Below are positions 1-18,568 of a stretch of 64,000 nucleotides of DNA, piece by piece (the stretch's first letter is position 1; the number at the start of each line of letters is the position of its first letter). A model generated the notes under the pieces. The model ran no database searches. It was not told where the DNA came from and saw nothing but the letters and a program-made list of their open reading frames with translations. Source of the DNA: an uncultured Acidobacteriota bacterium. GTDB lineage: Bacteria > Acidobacteriota > Polarisedimenticolia > Polarisedimenticolales > JAIQFR01. The DNA is taken from the NCBI GenBank assembly GCA_937864465.1, contig CALMJU010000045.1, positions 1,702 to 65,701 of the forward strand. Reading direction: 5' to 3'. The position numbers and the translations under genes are program-made.

Positions 1-2146
<2,146 letters not shown>

Positions 2147-2150
<4 letters not shown>

Positions 2151-3061
2151 GGAGTCTCGCACCGGGTCTCCCCGCCCGCGGCATCGAGGATCGCCGCGAC
2201 GTCCCCGGCACGGATCCGCCCGCCTCGCGCGCGAACGATCCCGAGGATTCCGAGCCGGGAGAGCGGGAAATCGTACCGCGTCGGGTCCTCCGGGTCGAGG
2301 TTCCGGAGCGCCGCGGTGACCTCGAGCGCCATGCGCCACCCCGGCGACCTCCGCCTCGTCCAGCCGAGCGCCGCTGCGATCCGCTCCATGTGCGTGTCGA
2401 GCGGCACGACGAGCCGCGACGGGGACACCCCGCTCCAGAGGCCCAGGTCGAGCCCGTCGTCGGGACGGACCATCCAGCGGAGGAAGAGGCAGTGCCGCTT
2501 GCAGGCGGACCCGTTCCTCGGGACCGGAAGGAGCAGCCGCACGCCGTCCCGCCGCGGCACGCGGCCTCCGTCGAGGAACGGCCGCGCGTCGAAGCCGAAC
2601 AGCGCGTCGCCGAACCGGTCCATCGCGGATTCGAGCGTCGGCGACGACGGATCGGCGTCCCCCTCTAGGAAGAGCGTCTCGAGCGAGGGGCCCCGCGCCG
2701 CCCGCGCCTGCGCCACGAGGTGCAGCAGGAGCGCGACGTCGCGGCCCGACGTGAACCGGTGCCGGAACCCCTCGAACCTTCGGGCGTCGGTCGCCGGCCG
2801 GTAGGCCTCCACGAACGCCCCGGGCCTCGGCCCCAGGACCCTCAGGAGCGAGTCGAGGCTCGCCCGGATCGACGAGACCCGGCCGTAGGCCAGGCCCGCG
2901 GCGAGCAGGCCGACCAGCTCGAGGTCCTCGGGCCGGTCGAAGCGCCGGACGATCCCGAGGGGATCGCTTCCGAGGTGCCGGCGATCGTAGGCGCGCGCGA
3001 AGGCATCGAGACGAGCGCGAAGCTCGTCCACCCCGAGCGCGGGCCTCCGTCCCGGACGCAT
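2147..3061 (-). CDS. TIGR02757/DUF2400 family protein (function unknown)
   Basis: ORF 2147..3061. The segments GSACKRHCLFLRWMVRPDDGLDLGLW and PLDTHM match my recollection of this conserved hypothetical family. Confidence 0.7.
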
Positions 3062-3115: not shown

Positions 3116-4270
3116 CTACCGCGCGAGGAAGAGGATCGCGAGCCCGGCCAGGCCCAGGAGGGCGACAAGCAGCGCCGCCAGGGCGAGGCGCCGCCCCCGG
3201 CCGCGCCGGGGCGCCGGAGACTCGTCCGGCGCCTCGGCCCACGTCTCCGCCAAGGACACCGGCGCGACGCTCGCCGAGAGGATGCCGCGGCCCGCGGCCC
3301 TACGGAACACCTCCCGGTTGACGCGCGGCACGAGGTCGTCCCGGACCCGCCCGTAGAGCGACTTCTCGATTCGCCGGATCCGGTCCTCCGCGGGGGGATG
3401 GGCGGTCGCGATCTCGGCGGCCGAGGGGTCGCCCCGCCCGATCGCCGCGCCGAGCCGGGCGAGGAAGCGCAGCGCCGAGTACGGCTCGTAGCGGAGCGCG
3501 AGAAGCGCCTCGACGGCGCGGAGGTCCGCGTCGCGCTCCCTCTTCCTCCCGTAACCGAGCCGCACCAGGTCCAGCGCAGCGCCGGCCCAGCCCTCGCGGC
3601 CGGTCGGCGAGCCCCCCCGGGCCGCGGCTTGCTGGCCGATCCTGGTCATGCGGACGGCGGCGTCCTCCGACGCGGCGTGGGCGATCTCGTGGCCGAGCAG
3701 GAACGCGAGCTCCGCCTCGTCCTCGAGGAACTCGACGGCGCCGAGGCTGATCAGGAGCGTTCCCGACGGCAGGGCGAGCGTGCGAAGGCGCCGGTCGTCC
3801 ACGAGAACCACGCGGACGTCCCTGGGCGCCCCCTCGATCCGCAGGGCCACTTGCCGCGCGATCCGGTCGAGGTACTCCGACACCCCGGGCGACGTCACGA
3901 ATCGCCAGCGGGTCGCGAGCGCGGCGCGAATCTCGCCCTCGGTGGCCGCGGAGAGGTGCGCGTCGGGCAGCGACTCCGGAACGATCCCCTCGCGGCAGTC
4001 CGGGCACAGGTGATCGGTGTGCGGGAGGATCCGGTCGGCCGCGAACGGCAGCCCGCAGGACCCGCAGGTGAAGATCATCTCCAGGCCGGCGGCGGACCTG
4101 GCGCTCCGCGTGCCGCACCGGCTGCACCGGAAGACCGACCTCCCGCCGAGCGTGGCCGACGCCACCGGAGGGATCGCCCCCGCCGGCTCGCCGCAGCGCG
4201 GGCAGAGGTCCGCGGCCGGCGCCGCGCTCCCCGGGGGGATCGCGGACGTCAGGCCGGTCGGGCTTTCCAT
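3116..4270 (-). CDS. M48-family zinc metalloprotease with N-terminal triple zinc-ribbon region and C-terminal membrane anchor
   Basis: ATG at 4270 inside ORF 3116..4792. Cys pairs CPRCG..CSRCG, CGSCG..CPDC. HEIAH zinc motif (LLGHEIAHAASED). C-terminal hydrophobic LALAALLVALLGLAGLAILFL. The upstream 174 aa are R/G-rich shadow sequence. Confidence 0.75.
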   Translation of the reverse strand: MESPTGLTSAIPPGSAAPAADLCPRCGEPAGAIPPVASATLGGRSVFRCSRCGTRSARSAAGLEMIFTCGSCGLPFAADRILPHTDHLCPDCREGIVPESLPDAHLSAATEGEIRAALATRWRFVTSPGVSEYLDRIARQVALRIEGAPRDVRVVLVDDRRLRTLALPSGTLLISLGAVEFLEDEAELAFLLGHEIAHAASEDAAVRMTRIGQQAAARGGSPTGREGWAGAALDLVRLGYGRKRERDADLRAVEALLALRYEPYSALRFLARLGAAIGRGDPSAAEIATAHPPAEDRIRRIEKSLYGRVRDDLVPRVNREVFRRAAGRGILSASVAPVSLAETWAEAPDESPAPRRGRGRRLALAALLVALLGLAGLAILFLAR

Positions 4271-14378: not shown

Positions 14379-15793
14379 CCCGCGAGCCCCTCCCGCTGCA
14401 TCGTCGCGACCGTCTCCACGTGGGCCGTCTGGGGAAAGAGGTCCACCGGCACCGCGCACCCCAGGGCGTACCCGGCGCCGGCAAGGGCGCGCGCGTCCCG
14501 GGCGAGCGTGGCCGGGTCGCAGGACACGAGCGCGACGCGGGAGGCGCCGAGCGCGCCGATGCGGCGGGCGACCTCCGCGCCGAGCCCCGACCGCGGCGGG
14601 TCGACGACGACGAGATCCGGCGGCCCGCGCCGCGCGGGAGCGCTCGCCAGGTGGTCGCCCACGCCCGCGGCGACGAACTCGACGGCCCGGTCGAGCCCGA
14701 GCGCCGCCGCGGCGAGGCGGCCGCCCCCGACGGCCTCCCCGTTCGCCTCGACGGCGGTCACGCGCCAGCCCGAGCGGGCCAGAGCCAGGGCGAAGACGCC
14801 GACTCCCGCGTAGAGATCGAGGGCCTCCCCGCCGCTCTCGCCGGCGGCCTCGAGGACGAGCCGGACGAGATGCTCGGCGGCCGCGGGGTTGACCTGGAAG
14901 AACGAGTCGGCCGGGACACGGAAGGCCAGCCCGCCGAGCGTCTCCTCGATCCATCCCTCCCCCGCCAGCACCGTGGCGCCCGCGCCCCCTCGGCGGCCGG
15001 GAGGTCCCGAGACCCTCACGACTCCCGCGACGTCGGCGTGCCGCTCGGCCACGGCCCGCGCGAAGCCGGGCGCCGACGGGAAGGGTCCCCCGGCGTCGCG
15101 AAGGACGACGAGGCTCCGCAGCGCCGACGCCGAGCGCCGCAGGATGAGCCGCACGGCGCCGTGCTCCCCCTCGAGCGCGGCATCGCCGCGCCCGGGCCCG
15201 TCCAGGAAGTACTCCCTCGCCGTGGCGAGAAGCGCGTTCGCGGCGTCGTCGGCGAGAATGCACCGCTCGACGTCGACGAGGCCGCCGGGCTCTCCTCTCG
15301 CGTGGTAGCCGAGAGCCCGCCTCCCGCCCGATCTCCCGAAGACCACCTCGATCCGGTTCCGGTACCCGGTCGCCGGCCCTCCGGAGAGCGCCTCGGAGAC
15401 CTCGGGCTCGCGGAACCCTCCGATCCTCCGGAGGCAATCGGACACGATCCTCCGCTTCCAGCCCCTCTGGGCGTCCTCCCGGAGCGGCATCCAGGGGCAG
15501 CCGCCGCACTTCCCCTGGATCGGACAGGCGGGGTCCCTGCGGTCCTTCGAAGGCGCTTCGATCCGCGACGCGACCCCCTCGACATAGGCCCGGCGCTCCT
15601 TGCGAGGCGCCGCGATCACGGTGTCCCCGGCAAGCCCCCCCTCCACCAGCCAGACCTTCCCCCCGACGCGCCCGACCCCACGGCCTCCGGCCGCCATCGA
15701 CTCGATGACGACCCGCCGGACCTGCGGCCCGGATGACCCGGCCGGCGCGCCGACCCCTAGATGCTGGGGACCCCGGGAGCGCTCCTTCCACAT
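14375..15793 (-). CDS. rlmD: 23S rRNA (uracil-C5)-methyltransferase, RumA/RlmD family (TRAM + 4Fe-4S + SAM MTase)
   Basis: ORF 14375..15814. I prefer ATG at 15793, preceded by AGAGGAAA. Cys cluster CPIQGKCGGCPW, FFQVN, DLYAGVG, VDPPRSG. Its stop overlaps the holB stop on the opposite strand (CTAG). Confidence 0.85.
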   Translation of the reverse strand: MWKERSRGPQHLGVGAPAGSSGPQVRRVVIESMAAGGRGVGRVGGKVWLVEGGLAGDTVIAAPRKERRAYVEGVASRIEAPSKDRRDPACPIQGKCGGCPWMPLREDAQRGWKRRIVSDCLRRIGGFREPEVSEALSGGPATGYRNRIEVVFGRSGGRRALGYHARGEPGGLVDVERCILADDAANALLATAREYFLDGPGRGDAALEGEHGAVRLILRRSASALRSLVVLRDAGGPFPSAPGFARAVAERHADVAGVVRVSGPPGRRGGAGATVLAGEGWIEETLGGLAFRVPADSFFQVNPAAAEHLVRLVLEAAGESGGEALDLYAGVGVFALALARSGWRVTAVEANGEAVGGGRLAAAALGLDRAVEFVAAGVGDHLASAPARRGPPDLVVVDPPRSGLGAEVARRIGALGASRVALVSCDPATLARDARALAGAGYALGCAVPVDLFPQTAHVETVATMQREGLAG

Positions 15794-15807
15794 CTTGTAT
15801 TTTCCTC

Positions 15808-15837
15808 TTGACACTGTTTCCCGCGAGGGGGTATGGT
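15808..15837 (+). promoter_or_regulatory. near-consensus sigma70-like promoter pointing into the gene-free region
   Basis: TTGACA (15808..15813), an 18-nt spacer, then TATGGT (15832..15837). Confidence 0.4.
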
Positions 15838-15917
15838 CGAAACGGTGGATCGCGGGTTGGACCCGCCGGGGCCTCGAACGAGCGGACGCCTCGGCAACCT
15901 CGGGAGCGGGAATCGAT

Positions 15918-16128
15918 GCTTCGGACGCTGCTCACTCTCCCCGGAGGACAGCAACCCATATCCGATGCTTTCGAGAGCGGCCCTCGCGGCCGTCTCTCCC
16001 CGCCTGTAGCCTCGCTCGCGACCGGCCCCTCGGGGCAGGCGCGATCGAGGTCCTCGCCAACCCACCGCTGGAGTCTCGACCCGTGCCTTGGGAGCTATTG
16101 TCCGGGGAGAGCGAGCAGCGTCTGAGGC
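15918..16128. repeat. long inverted repeat (22-nt core with one mismatch, 28 positions with wobbles) enclosing about 155 nt
   Basis: GACGCTGCTCACTCTCCCCGGA (15924..15945) versus TCCGGGGAGAGCGAGCAGCGTC (16101..16122). Flanks pair only through G-U-type positions. Confidence 0.8.
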
Positions 16129-16268
16129 CGTTCCCGCATCGCGCGAGCCGGCGGGCGGCCCTTCACGATCCCTTCCCCTCGGCCGGGTTTCGCCGTACAT
16201 AACTCCTCGTTCCCATCCGACCTCATGGGGGCGGGGGTCTCCCGCGGCCGTTGCGGCCGGGGGGGGCC

Positions 16269-16298
16269 GGCGCAGGGGAGATACCCCGCCGTCTTTTT
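16269..16298 (+). terminator. intrinsic-terminator-like element
   Basis: Imperfect GC hairpin (core GGGG-AGATA-CCCC at 16275..16287 with flanking GC pairs), followed directly by TTTTT (16294..16298). Confidence 0.35.
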
Positions 16299-16353
16299 CC
16301 CCCCGACCGTCCGAGCGAAGGCGTCTCGTCCCTCCGCGGGCCGGAGCCGCGGC

Positions 16354-16383
16354 TTGACCCCGCTCGACGCCGCACACTATCTT
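16354..16383 (+). promoter_or_regulatory. promoter candidate for nnr-tsaE
   Basis: TTGACC (16354..16359), an 18-nt spacer, then TATCTT (16378..16383), about 45 nt upstream of the nnr ATG. A mirror-image TTGCGC-N18-TAGTGT exists on the minus strand (16403..16374). Confidence 0.3.
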
Positions 16384-16427
16384 CCGAGGCGGGCCGCGCG
16401 CAAGCGCAGCGCGCGCGGGGGTGGCGG

Positions 16428-18007
<1,580 letters not shown>

Positions 18008-18014
<7 letters not shown>

Positions 18015-18544
18015 TCCCCCGCCGGTCGCGGTCGGGAGCCGCGCAGCGCTCCGCGGCGGCGCCCTCCGCTCCCGCCGGCCCGGTCGCGCCGCGCGCGACC
18101 TTCTCGCTGAGCGAGGAGGAGACGTTCGAGCTCGGGCGGGCGTTCGGCCGCGGGATCCGGGGCGGGGAGATCGTCCTCCTCCAGGGAGACCTGGGCCTCG
18201 GCAAGACGGTGTTCGCGCGCGGCGTCGCCGCCGCCCTCGGCATCGCGCCCGAGGACGTGTCGTCTCCTTCGTTCACGCTGGTGCAGGAGTACACGGGGGG
18301 CCGGATCCCGATGTTCCACGTCGACCTCTACCGGATCGACGCCGCGGAGGAGATCGGGACGCTGGGGCTCGAGGAGATCGTGTCGGCCGGGGCCGTCGTC
18401 GTGGTCGAGTGGGGCGAGAAGCTCCCCCCCTATCTCCGCCGCGACGCGGTCACCGTGCGGTTCCACGACGTCGGCGAGGGCTCGCGGCGCATCGAGATCC
18501 TCCCTACGTCCGGAGCGCCCTCGCGAGCCTCCGGCGACGCGTAG
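18008..18544 (+). CDS. tsaE: tRNA t6A37 threonylcarbamoyladenosine biosynthesis protein TsaE
   Basis: ATG at 18008 (7-nt overlap with nnr) inside ORF 16421..18544. LQGDLGLGKTVFARG P-loop, SPSFTLVQEY, HVDLYR, VVVEW. Confidence 0.85.
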
Positions 18545-18568
18545 CGCCGACGCCGCGGCGGCTCCCGG

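Follow-up and report, generated by a model that had tools for sequence, protein, structure and literature searches.

A probable structured non-coding RNA gene divergent from rlmD in a clade of Acidobacteriota

Results

The gap between rlmD and nnr

The stretch analyzed here, 64,000 nucleotides of contig CALMJU010000045.1 from an uncultured Acidobacteriota bacterium (hereafter the window, numbered from its first letter), has a G+C content of 72% over its whole length and carries between the genes rlmD and nnr a non-coding gap (15794..16427) with a putative RNA unit on the plus strand. We consider it likely that the segment 15844..16298 of this strand is the gene of a structured non-coding RNA (ncRNA), present in one copy and inherited vertically, and that it represents a family outside Rfam 15 that belongs, as far as sampled, to an acidobacterial clade including Candidatus Polarisedimenticolaceae. 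On one side of the gap, rlmD lies on the minus strand (start ATG 15793, seen as CAT at 15791-15793) and its product is recognized by the Pfam domains tRNA_U5-meth_tr and TRAM and by the NCBIfam RlmD equivalog TIGR00479, with a score of 252.9 bits against a cutoff of 183.55. On the other side, nnr lies on the plus strand (ATG 16428 to 18014) with the Pfam domains YjeF_N and Carb_kinase. The G+C content of third codon positions, being 0.88-0.95 in both genes, loses this signal inside the gap, and a Pfam search of the open reading frames (ORFs) in 15794..16427 returned no domains. Moreover, the RNA fold of 15840-16300 has a z-score of -5.85 on the plus strand and of -3.11 on the minus strand. These results bear out a preliminary description of the stretch, made from its letters alone, in which the gap was taken as non-coding and strongly structured. 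The features are as follows.

15795..15803, plus strand: A/T-rich block TTGTATTTT, between the rlmD start codon and the -35 box
15808-15837, plus strand: sigma-70-type promoter TTGACA-N18-TATGGT, from a promoter scan and conservation in relatives
15844..15917, plus strand: 5' leader of ~75 nt, variable in sequence and length (43-90 nt among relatives)
15918..15944, plus strand: 5' arm of helix P1, GCUUCGGACGCUGCUCACUCUCCCCGG, from inverted repeat, fold and covariation
15945..15972, plus strand: 5' strand of the inner rod, with P2 (GGACAGC), P3 (CCCA) and a CCGA block, replaced by UCGA in most relatives
15973..15998, plus strand: hairpin A (GAGAGCGGCC...GGCCGUCUCUC), optional, absent from one lineage
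16010..16050, plus strand: hairpin B (CCUCGCUCGCG...CGCGAUCGAGG), always present, varying in length and sequence
16051..16101, plus strand: highly conserved 3' strand of the core, with CCCACC (16061-16066), GUCUCGACCCGUGCC (16073-16087) and then the 3' strands of P3 and P2
16102..16128, plus strand: 3' arm of helix P1, CCGGGGAGAGCGAGCAGCGUCUGAGGC, from inverted repeat, fold and covariation
16129..16226, plus strand: 3' tail, holding CCGUACAU at 16193-16200, a block also found in the 3' domain of relatives
16227..16298, plus strand: long hairpin with a run of eight G at its tip (16259-16266), then UUUUU (16294-16298); RNAfold -45.3 kcal/mol
16354-16383, plus strand: second promoter-like site TTGACC-N18-TATCTT, 45 nt upstream of the nnr start

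Architecture of the core

The universal part of the RNA is a core that measures 211 nt in the window (15918-16128) and is given as 164-206 nt for the family, closed by P1, a helix of 27 bp here and of 25-28 bp across the family that is nearly invariant in sequence. The long inverted repeat on which the preliminary description was built is recovered as 15918-15952 / 16094-16128 (35 nt, 83% complementary), and it covaries. Its 22-nt core finds two matches in the 64 kb, corresponding to its own two arms, against 0.01 expected in shuffles, and BLASTN within the window gave no second copy of the element. The outward continuation of this helix by GCGGGAA/TTCCCGC, also proposed before, does exist in the window, but relatives do not conserve it.

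Inward, P1 leads into P2, then into P3 (CCC/GGG, invariant) and then into a possible 4-bp P4 (UCGA/UCGA), the rod ending at a junction that holds hairpins A and B. From the internal hairpins first suggested, the one at 15973-15998 is confirmed and covaries, whereas CGCCUG/CAGGCG is not a conserved pairing, the conserved one being 16010-16050. Hairpin A is cleanly deleted in one group of related loci (L008, L009, L011, L017, L019 and L027). The conserved unpaired blocks of the core are CCCACC, ACCCGUGCC (part of GUCUCGACCCGUGCC and invariant in 22/22 aligned sequences) and the flanking GUCUCG; an asymmetric loop, CCCGUGCC, faces a strand of 3-4 nt.

Two kinds of complementary motif recur in the family. 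Those of the GGGGAG type are found in the 3' arm of P1, in a loop (AGGGGGAGG) and in a 3' hairpin, and those of the CUCCCC/CCCACC type in the 5' arm of P1, after hairpin A, in the 3' strand of the core and in CCCACCUCCC, which resembles the anti-Shine-Dalgarno sequence of 16S rRNA. Together with the loop of six to eight G and the UCGA and CCGG palindromes, these motifs could allow alternative or intermolecular pairings.

Relatives and conservation

A scan with the nnr protein, taking one genome per species, gave four acidobacterial loci from metagenome-assembled genomes (MAGs; L001, L002, L003 and L005) with the same gene order; in a Binataceae locus from the same scan the element is not present. 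An exact-pattern scan of metagenome contigs, with two conserved stretches as the query, added 18 loci, and 7 further ones were fetched via rlmD homologues 44-50% identical to the window protein. In all seven of the latter a gap of 470-850 nt lies upstream of rlmD, and the element is present in 7/7. Altogether, 29 related loci from acidobacterial genomes and metagenomes have the element, one of them in an assembly whose RlmD is named by NCBI as Candidatus Polarisedimenticolaceae (class Polarisedimenticolia, Acidobacteriota). The loci are parts of genomes, and copy number was judged per window or per locus.

An alignment of the gaps of the window, L001 and L005 conserves the RNA promoter, the blocks 15920-15958 and 16057-16128, and the nnr promoter, both blocks being ~100% identical among the three. 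By comparison, protein identity across the loci from the nnr scan is 61-68% for nnr and 45-52% for rlmD. Judged by sequence identity, then, the core is constrained more strongly than the adjacent essential proteins, and this suggests strong selection on the activity of the RNA. The pattern used for the metagenome scan forces ACCCGUGCC and GGGGAGAGC-N-AGCAGC in the part of the family that it collected (L006-L023). Also, ACCCGUGCC is intact in the loci fetched by protein (L024-L030).

When the loci were searched with a covariance model of 18 distinct cores, each yielded exactly one strong match on the plus strand; that of the window covers 15910-16136 with 177 bits (E = 2e-46). Weaker matches on the minus strand correspond to the mirror image of the palindromic helix.

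Covariation, strand and coding potential

Covariation statistics were computed on 22 distinct sequences. Standard pairs occupy 90.4% of the cells, compared with 39-47% when the 3' partners are slid by 1-3 columns, and 18 pairs are changed on both sides, against 9.3 +/- 1.7 in shuffles, where 0/500 reach 18. In P1, 93.8% of the cells are paired and both-side changes are observed in nine of the 27 pairs. For example, L025/L026 carry the compensatory changes CCCCGG/CCGGGG to CUCCGG/CCGGAG and GCUCGC/GCGAGC to GAUCGC/GCGAUC, and one G-C turned into C-G. Hairpin A shows both-side changes in 7/9 pairs, with agreement of the folds of single sequences, and hairpin B folds to a hairpin in 22/22 sequences, each time with a different sequence, and has covarying pairs in the alignment fold. 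In the inner rod, columns 42/191 display five pair types, P3 never varies, and in P4 one compensatory change and five G-U cells are seen.

The strand of the RNA can be read from the G-U and A-C cells. The well-aligned part of P1 holds 25 G-U and 9 A-C cells, and all helices taken together 75 G-U and 36 A-C cells; the RNA would thus be the plus strand because these ratios would invert on the minus strand, and the promoter and the terminators described below are also on the plus strand. The counts in the solid part of P1 speak against the minus-strand leader of rlmD that had been entertained as an alternative, the closest relatives, L001 and L005, do not conserve the promoter proposed for it, TTGCGC-N18-TAGTGT, and the scan found no sigma-70-like site on the minus strand.

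Core lengths of 164, 173, 174, 185, 188-190 and 203-206 nt differ by amounts that are not multiples of three, and consequently no reading frame can span both conserved blocks. The ATG of the 69-codon ORF that overlies the repeat is missing in L001. A small protein gene was rejected on these grounds: no third-position G+C signal, a start that is not conserved, lengths off-frame and no Pfam match. Small ORFs after the GGGGGAGG motif and in the leader were discarded as well, their frames not being kept among relatives.

Promoter, terminator and predicted transcript

The promoter scan of the gap returned two sites, 15808-15837 and 16354-16383, against 0.0 expected in shuffles. The first is the TTGACA-N18-TATGGT promoter pointed out earlier, and a TTGAC-N18-20-TAnSGT pattern precedes the core in 27 of the 30 tabulated loci, the window counted. 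Transcription would start near 15844, ~7 nt beyond the -10 hexamer. With a consensus -35 box and a T-rich block upstream of it, the promoter suggests a strongly expressed, stable RNA.

At the other end, the hairpin and UUUUU at 16227-16298 probably constitute an intrinsic terminator and hence the 3' end of the RNA. The earlier proposal of a hairpin followed by a U-run is supported here: RNAfold gives a long hairpin spanning 16227-16293 before the UUUUU, and strong terminators stand at the equivalent place in relatives. A strict terminator scan called none. From the inferred start to the terminator U-run, the predicted transcript measures 454 nt in the window and 500-615 nt in most relatives, reaching 801 nt in L007, which has an insertion. 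An independent transcript is expected because a conserved promoter and a terminator bound a structured plus-strand unit; in this way the plus-strand transcript of ~455 nt first envisaged gains support from conservation, covariation, strand-specific G-U pairs, and the promoter and terminator of related loci. At the sequence level, the generic marks of a structured ncRNA gene, i.e. covariation, its own promoter and its own terminator, are all present.

The 3' domain

In most lineages a 3' domain of ~300 nt lies downstream of the core, with its blocks in a fixed order.

Block 1: AAUCGGUCCU-N-AAAAG...CGUCC...CUUUAC
Block 2: CCGUA(C/A)AU, where CGUA is invariant in the 3'-domain alignment
Block 3: long hairpin with a run of 6-8 G at its tip, whose stem sequence differs between groups
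Block 4: GUUGCCCACCUCCC-loop-GGGAG
Block 5: strong terminator GGGCGGUGG...CCACCGCCC, then U6-8

The G-run at the tip has 6-7 G in most relatives with the domain. A profile of the 3' domain was found directly after the core in 25 loci. On the window the profile of the full domain gave no match at E <= 0.01, which suggests that the window carries a reduced 3' domain. Its tail, from the end of the core to the end of the terminator, measures 170 nt and closes in a hairpin and UUUUU; it keeps CCGUACAU and the G-tipped hairpin 16227-16293, the latter doubling here as the terminator. In the lineage of L002/L010/L018/L021, the core is followed by ~100 nt with two small hairpins and then by the stop codon of a convergent chorismate synthase gene (aroC), a terminator after the core not being obvious. 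The profile had no match anywhere in the loci of this lineage, and a separate copy of the 3' domain elsewhere was dropped as a candidate, the search being negative in the loci that do not have the domain.

A different arrangement is seen in L007, where an insertion of ~240 nt (3250-3480, plus strand) parts the core from the 3' domain and a terminator-like hairpin with UUGUUUU precedes it. According to this hairpin, core and 3' domain might be separate transcripts in that locus.

Position relative to rlmD and the other neighbors

Wherever a locus extends far enough upstream, the RNA is seen to be divergent from rlmD (12/12 RNA-anchored and 7/7 rlmD-anchored loci among them), and rlmD is its only invariant neighbor. 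In the window, 14 nt separate the rlmD ATG from the -35 box of the RNA, and relatives have the same close head-to-head layout. The rlmD start codon, the A/T-rich block and the -35 box are thereby packed in ~23 nt (15791-15813), and likewise in L009, L012, L017, L026 and L027. Read on the rlmD strand, the A/T-rich block gives the 5' untranslated region (UTR) AAAAUACAAG-AUG; several divergent groups conserve it at the nucleotide level, and it is taken as untranslated because L017 has an in-frame TAG just before the rlmD ATG. This block may be an UP-like element of the RNA promoter, the translation initiation region of rlmD, or both. Gene callers take as the rlmD start, in several loci, an in-frame NTG that overlaps the -35 box, a choice excluded in L017 by the TAG. 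No sigma-70-like promoter towards rlmD was found in the gap of the window or in the relatives scanned, so the rlmD transcript would have to start within or beyond the RNA gene.

On the downstream side the neighbor varies: nnr may follow directly or after a convergent aroC, and in other loci tsaE or a different inserted gene takes this place, with nnr 0.3-9 kb away in many relatives. In L003, for example, an extra gene for 435 aa (1680-2987, minus strand) stands between the RNA and nnr. The wider neighborhood is of a housekeeping kind, with pgpA, ribF, tmk, holB and rlmD on one side of the RNA and aroC, nnr, tsaE, guaB and secA on the other. The second promoter-like site, at 16354-16383, is conserved in L001 and L005 (CTTGACC...CTATCTTCCG) and is probably nnr's own promoter; with a separate promoter, nnr would be independent of the RNA.

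Comparison with known RNAs and rejected candidates

The preliminary description had assigned the element to no known RNA class, and the searches agree. Rfam 15 at gathering threshold gave 0 matches over the 64-kb window, where tRNA genes were likewise absent. At E <= 10 on 15600-16600, only three chance matches to microRNA or small RNA models were obtained, with 10-20 bits. On nine related loci, gathering and permissive thresholds gave nothing relevant, and ARAGORN reported no tRNA or transfer-messenger RNA (tmRNA) in the window and 12 related loci. Recognizable 6S, signal recognition particle (SRP) RNA, RNase P, tmRNA, OLE, ROOL, GOLLD, raiA, nadA, Acido-1 and Acido-Lenti-1 are excluded. Text searches of the literature found no description of such an RNA. 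The element had 0 matches in the viral contigs scanned, and a phage origin was rejected. The preliminary description had named an Rfam match, missing conservation or covariation, and dispersed copies as observations that would count against a new RNA gene; all three were looked for, the copies within the window and the related loci, and none was found.

Mimicry of rRNA, or pairing with it, was tested because of the link with RlmD. When four family members were compared with E. coli 16S, 23S and 5S rRNA in both senses, z was at most 1.6 in all cases but one, and the candidate was rejected. The exception is L026 against antisense 16S 328-352, with z = 5.1 against shuffles: its core segment GCCUACCGUUGGAGUCUUGACC (~2750-2775, minus strand of the locus) is complementary to E. 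coli 16S 330-352 at 19 of 22 positions. This match is treated as chance because its CUGGAG part varies in other groups. Also rejected was a likeness to the RlmD target site near U1939 of 23S rRNA, where the resemblance of UACCCGCGGC to (U/G)ACCCGUGCC does not exceed that of shuffles. Targets in the window complementary to the invariant GUCUYGACCCGUGCC numbered 10, against 13.5 expected.

A pairing of the leader with the core was considered and dropped. GGCACGG, complementary to CCGUGCC of the core, is found in the 5' leader of L008, L009, L011, L017, L019 and L027, whereas leaders of the L026 type have CACGGG and the other groups, the window among them, have no complement in the leader; GGCACGG/CCGUGCC is therefore confined to one lineage.

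Discussion

Readings of the conserved RNA

The combination of a conserved promoter, covarying helices and a core that outlasts the divergence of its neighbors leads us to regard 15844..16298 as the probable gene of a structured ncRNA. Beyond this, it is a real possibility, although short of an even chance, that the family represents a previously undescribed class of large (450-800 nt) ornate RNA with a housekeeping role in a whole acidobacterial lineage. Such an RNA could work as an RNA-protein machine, a ribozyme or a self-assembling RNA, and it might be a substrate, regulator or cofactor of RlmD.

The resemblance to OLE, ROOL, GOLLD and the raiA motif RNA lies in an independent unit of several hundred nucleotides whose function cannot be deduced from sequence, in long invariant stretches amid covarying helices and optional hairpins, and in a narrow phylogenetic range. 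However, none of their covariance models matches, the phylum is here Acidobacteriota, and the element occupies a single-copy, syntenic chromosomal locus that is not phage-associated. Moreover, its dominant feature is a near-perfect, invariant helix of 27 bp, and it has no dedicated gene for a partner protein, whereas OLE has oapA.

Acido-1 (RF01686) and Acido-Lenti-1 (RF01687) are orphan ncRNA candidates from Acidobacteria with no consistent gene association (PMC2864571). The element shares with them this orphan status and the phylum, but their Rfam models match neither the window nor the relatives, permissive E-values included. On the other hand, the pairing of the flanks of a structured RNA in a helix of more than 20 bp recalls rRNA processing stalks and other RNase III substrates. 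Processing stalks are conserved in pairing and not in sequence. The enclosed RNA has no significant likeness or complementarity to E. coli 16S, 23S or 5S rRNA, apart from the one match mentioned above, which is not conserved.

Supposing that the RNA is real, we propose tentatively, and with more doubt than confidence, a stable RNA present in abundance that acts in trans and serves an RNA-protein particle as its scaffold. A protein or another RNA would recognize a surface made up of the invariant rod, the asymmetric loop CCCGUGCC and the conserved unpaired strands. Helices of more than 20 bp suffice for RNase III. P1 would then be a likely substrate of this enzyme, and cleavage there would separate the core from the leader and the 3' domain, the pieces being either released or kept together by the lower half of P1. 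Through the invariant head-to-head overlap, the expression of rlmD is probably also coupled to the activity of the RNA promoter, and regulation of rlmD via the overlapping promoter region would in this scheme be a probable side effect of the RNA.

Alternative explanations

The constant position next to rlmD can also be read as the purpose of the element, which would then be a cis-antisense or promoter-coupled regulator of rlmD, acting by transcriptional interference where promoter and start codon overlap, or by pairing with an rlmD 5' UTR whose beginning would lie within the RNA gene. The divergent orientation wherever the flank suffices (the 12/12 RNA-anchored loci among them), the 14 nt between the rlmD ATG and the -35 box, and the failure to find a separate sigma-70-like rlmD promoter in the gap would all fit this explanation. 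Nonetheless, a 200-nt core with covarying hairpins and invariant unpaired blocks would be superfluous for antisense action or interference, as would a 3' domain of 300 nt, and the 5' leader, which is the part nearest to rlmD, is the least conserved, so we hold this explanation to be unlikely. A binder of RNA polymerase resembling 6S RNA (SsrS) or Ms1 has been considered as well, with P1 as closing stem, a central bubble around hairpin A and hairpin B as terminal stem. 6S RNA consists of a bulged closing stem, a central bubble and a terminal stem over ~150-200 nt and binds the sigma-70 holoenzyme. The topology of the element, from paired ends in a long closing stem through a large two-sided internal loop to a terminal hairpin, is loosely compatible with this, and the element is single-copy and chromosomal with a strong promoter of the housekeeping type. 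However, the closing stems of 6S RNAs are interrupted helices poorly conserved in sequence, whereas P1 is an uninterrupted, near-perfect and invariant stem of 27 bp; 6S RNA has nothing that corresponds to the 3' domain or to a size of 450-800 nt, and the Rfam 6S models find no match even at E <= 10. This identity is therefore quite improbable.

A riboswitch-like 5' leader of nnr, or a minus-strand leader of rlmD, would account for a highly structured region that in the window lies upstream of nnr on the same strand, but for nnr a terminator and a separate conserved promoter intervene, and many relatives have a convergent aroC, or tsaE, or another insert next to the element; for rlmD, the G-U and A-C counts contradict the minus strand, on which no promoter is conserved. 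Both leaders are thus very improbable. Finally, inverted repeats of 27-35 nt flanking ~155 nt, spanned by a 69-codon ORF with an ATG, are what a miniature inverted-repeat transposable element (MITE), another inverted-repeat mobile relic or a small protein gene might look like. We find such a DNA-level explanation scarcely credible, given a single copy in the 64-kb window as in each related locus, none in the viral contigs scanned, a syntenic site fixed across proteins that are only 45% identical, helices that covary with G-U pairs, and an ORF whose start is not conserved and whose lengths are off-frame.

The reading as a structured ncRNA gene has points against it, too. P2-P4 are weakly supported, since the groups disagree in their alignment registers and the L010 group has a broken P4, and the tail of the window matches the 3' domain of relatives at the level of motifs only. 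The forced search pattern inflates the apparent invariance of its two stretches in L006-L023. The ends, abundance and processing of the transcript are all deduced from sequence, the scaffold mechanism is drawn from the anatomy alone, and a near-perfect, sequence-invariant helix of 27 bp is unusual for known scaffold RNAs. As to novelty, the lack of an Rfam or literature match does not prove that the element was never described before. Moreover, the sequence invariance of P1 over its whole length is explained by none of the readings, the one preferred here included.

Significance

Large, highly conserved bacterial RNAs of uncertain role are rare, and those studied have been rewarding, as is the case for ribozymes, 6S RNA, the OLE particle and the RNA-only cages of ROOL and GOLLD. 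If the family were indeed a novel ornate class, it would join the short list with OLE, ROOL, GOLLD and raiA. It comes from an abundant, almost uncultured lineage of soil and sediment, and two of its features are without ready precedent, the sequence-invariant helix of 27 bp and the fixed head-to-head overlap with rlmD. A covariance model is now at hand for mapping the family across genomes.

Other apparent gaps in the window

A crude gene finder left further apparent gaps in the window, most of which hold long ORFs with a third-position G+C content of 0.78-0.80. One flagged gap, 18015-18568 (554 nt), is the tsaE gene, with a codon-phase G+C content of 0.93-1.0, a TsaE-like translation and a position after nnr that is kept in relatives.

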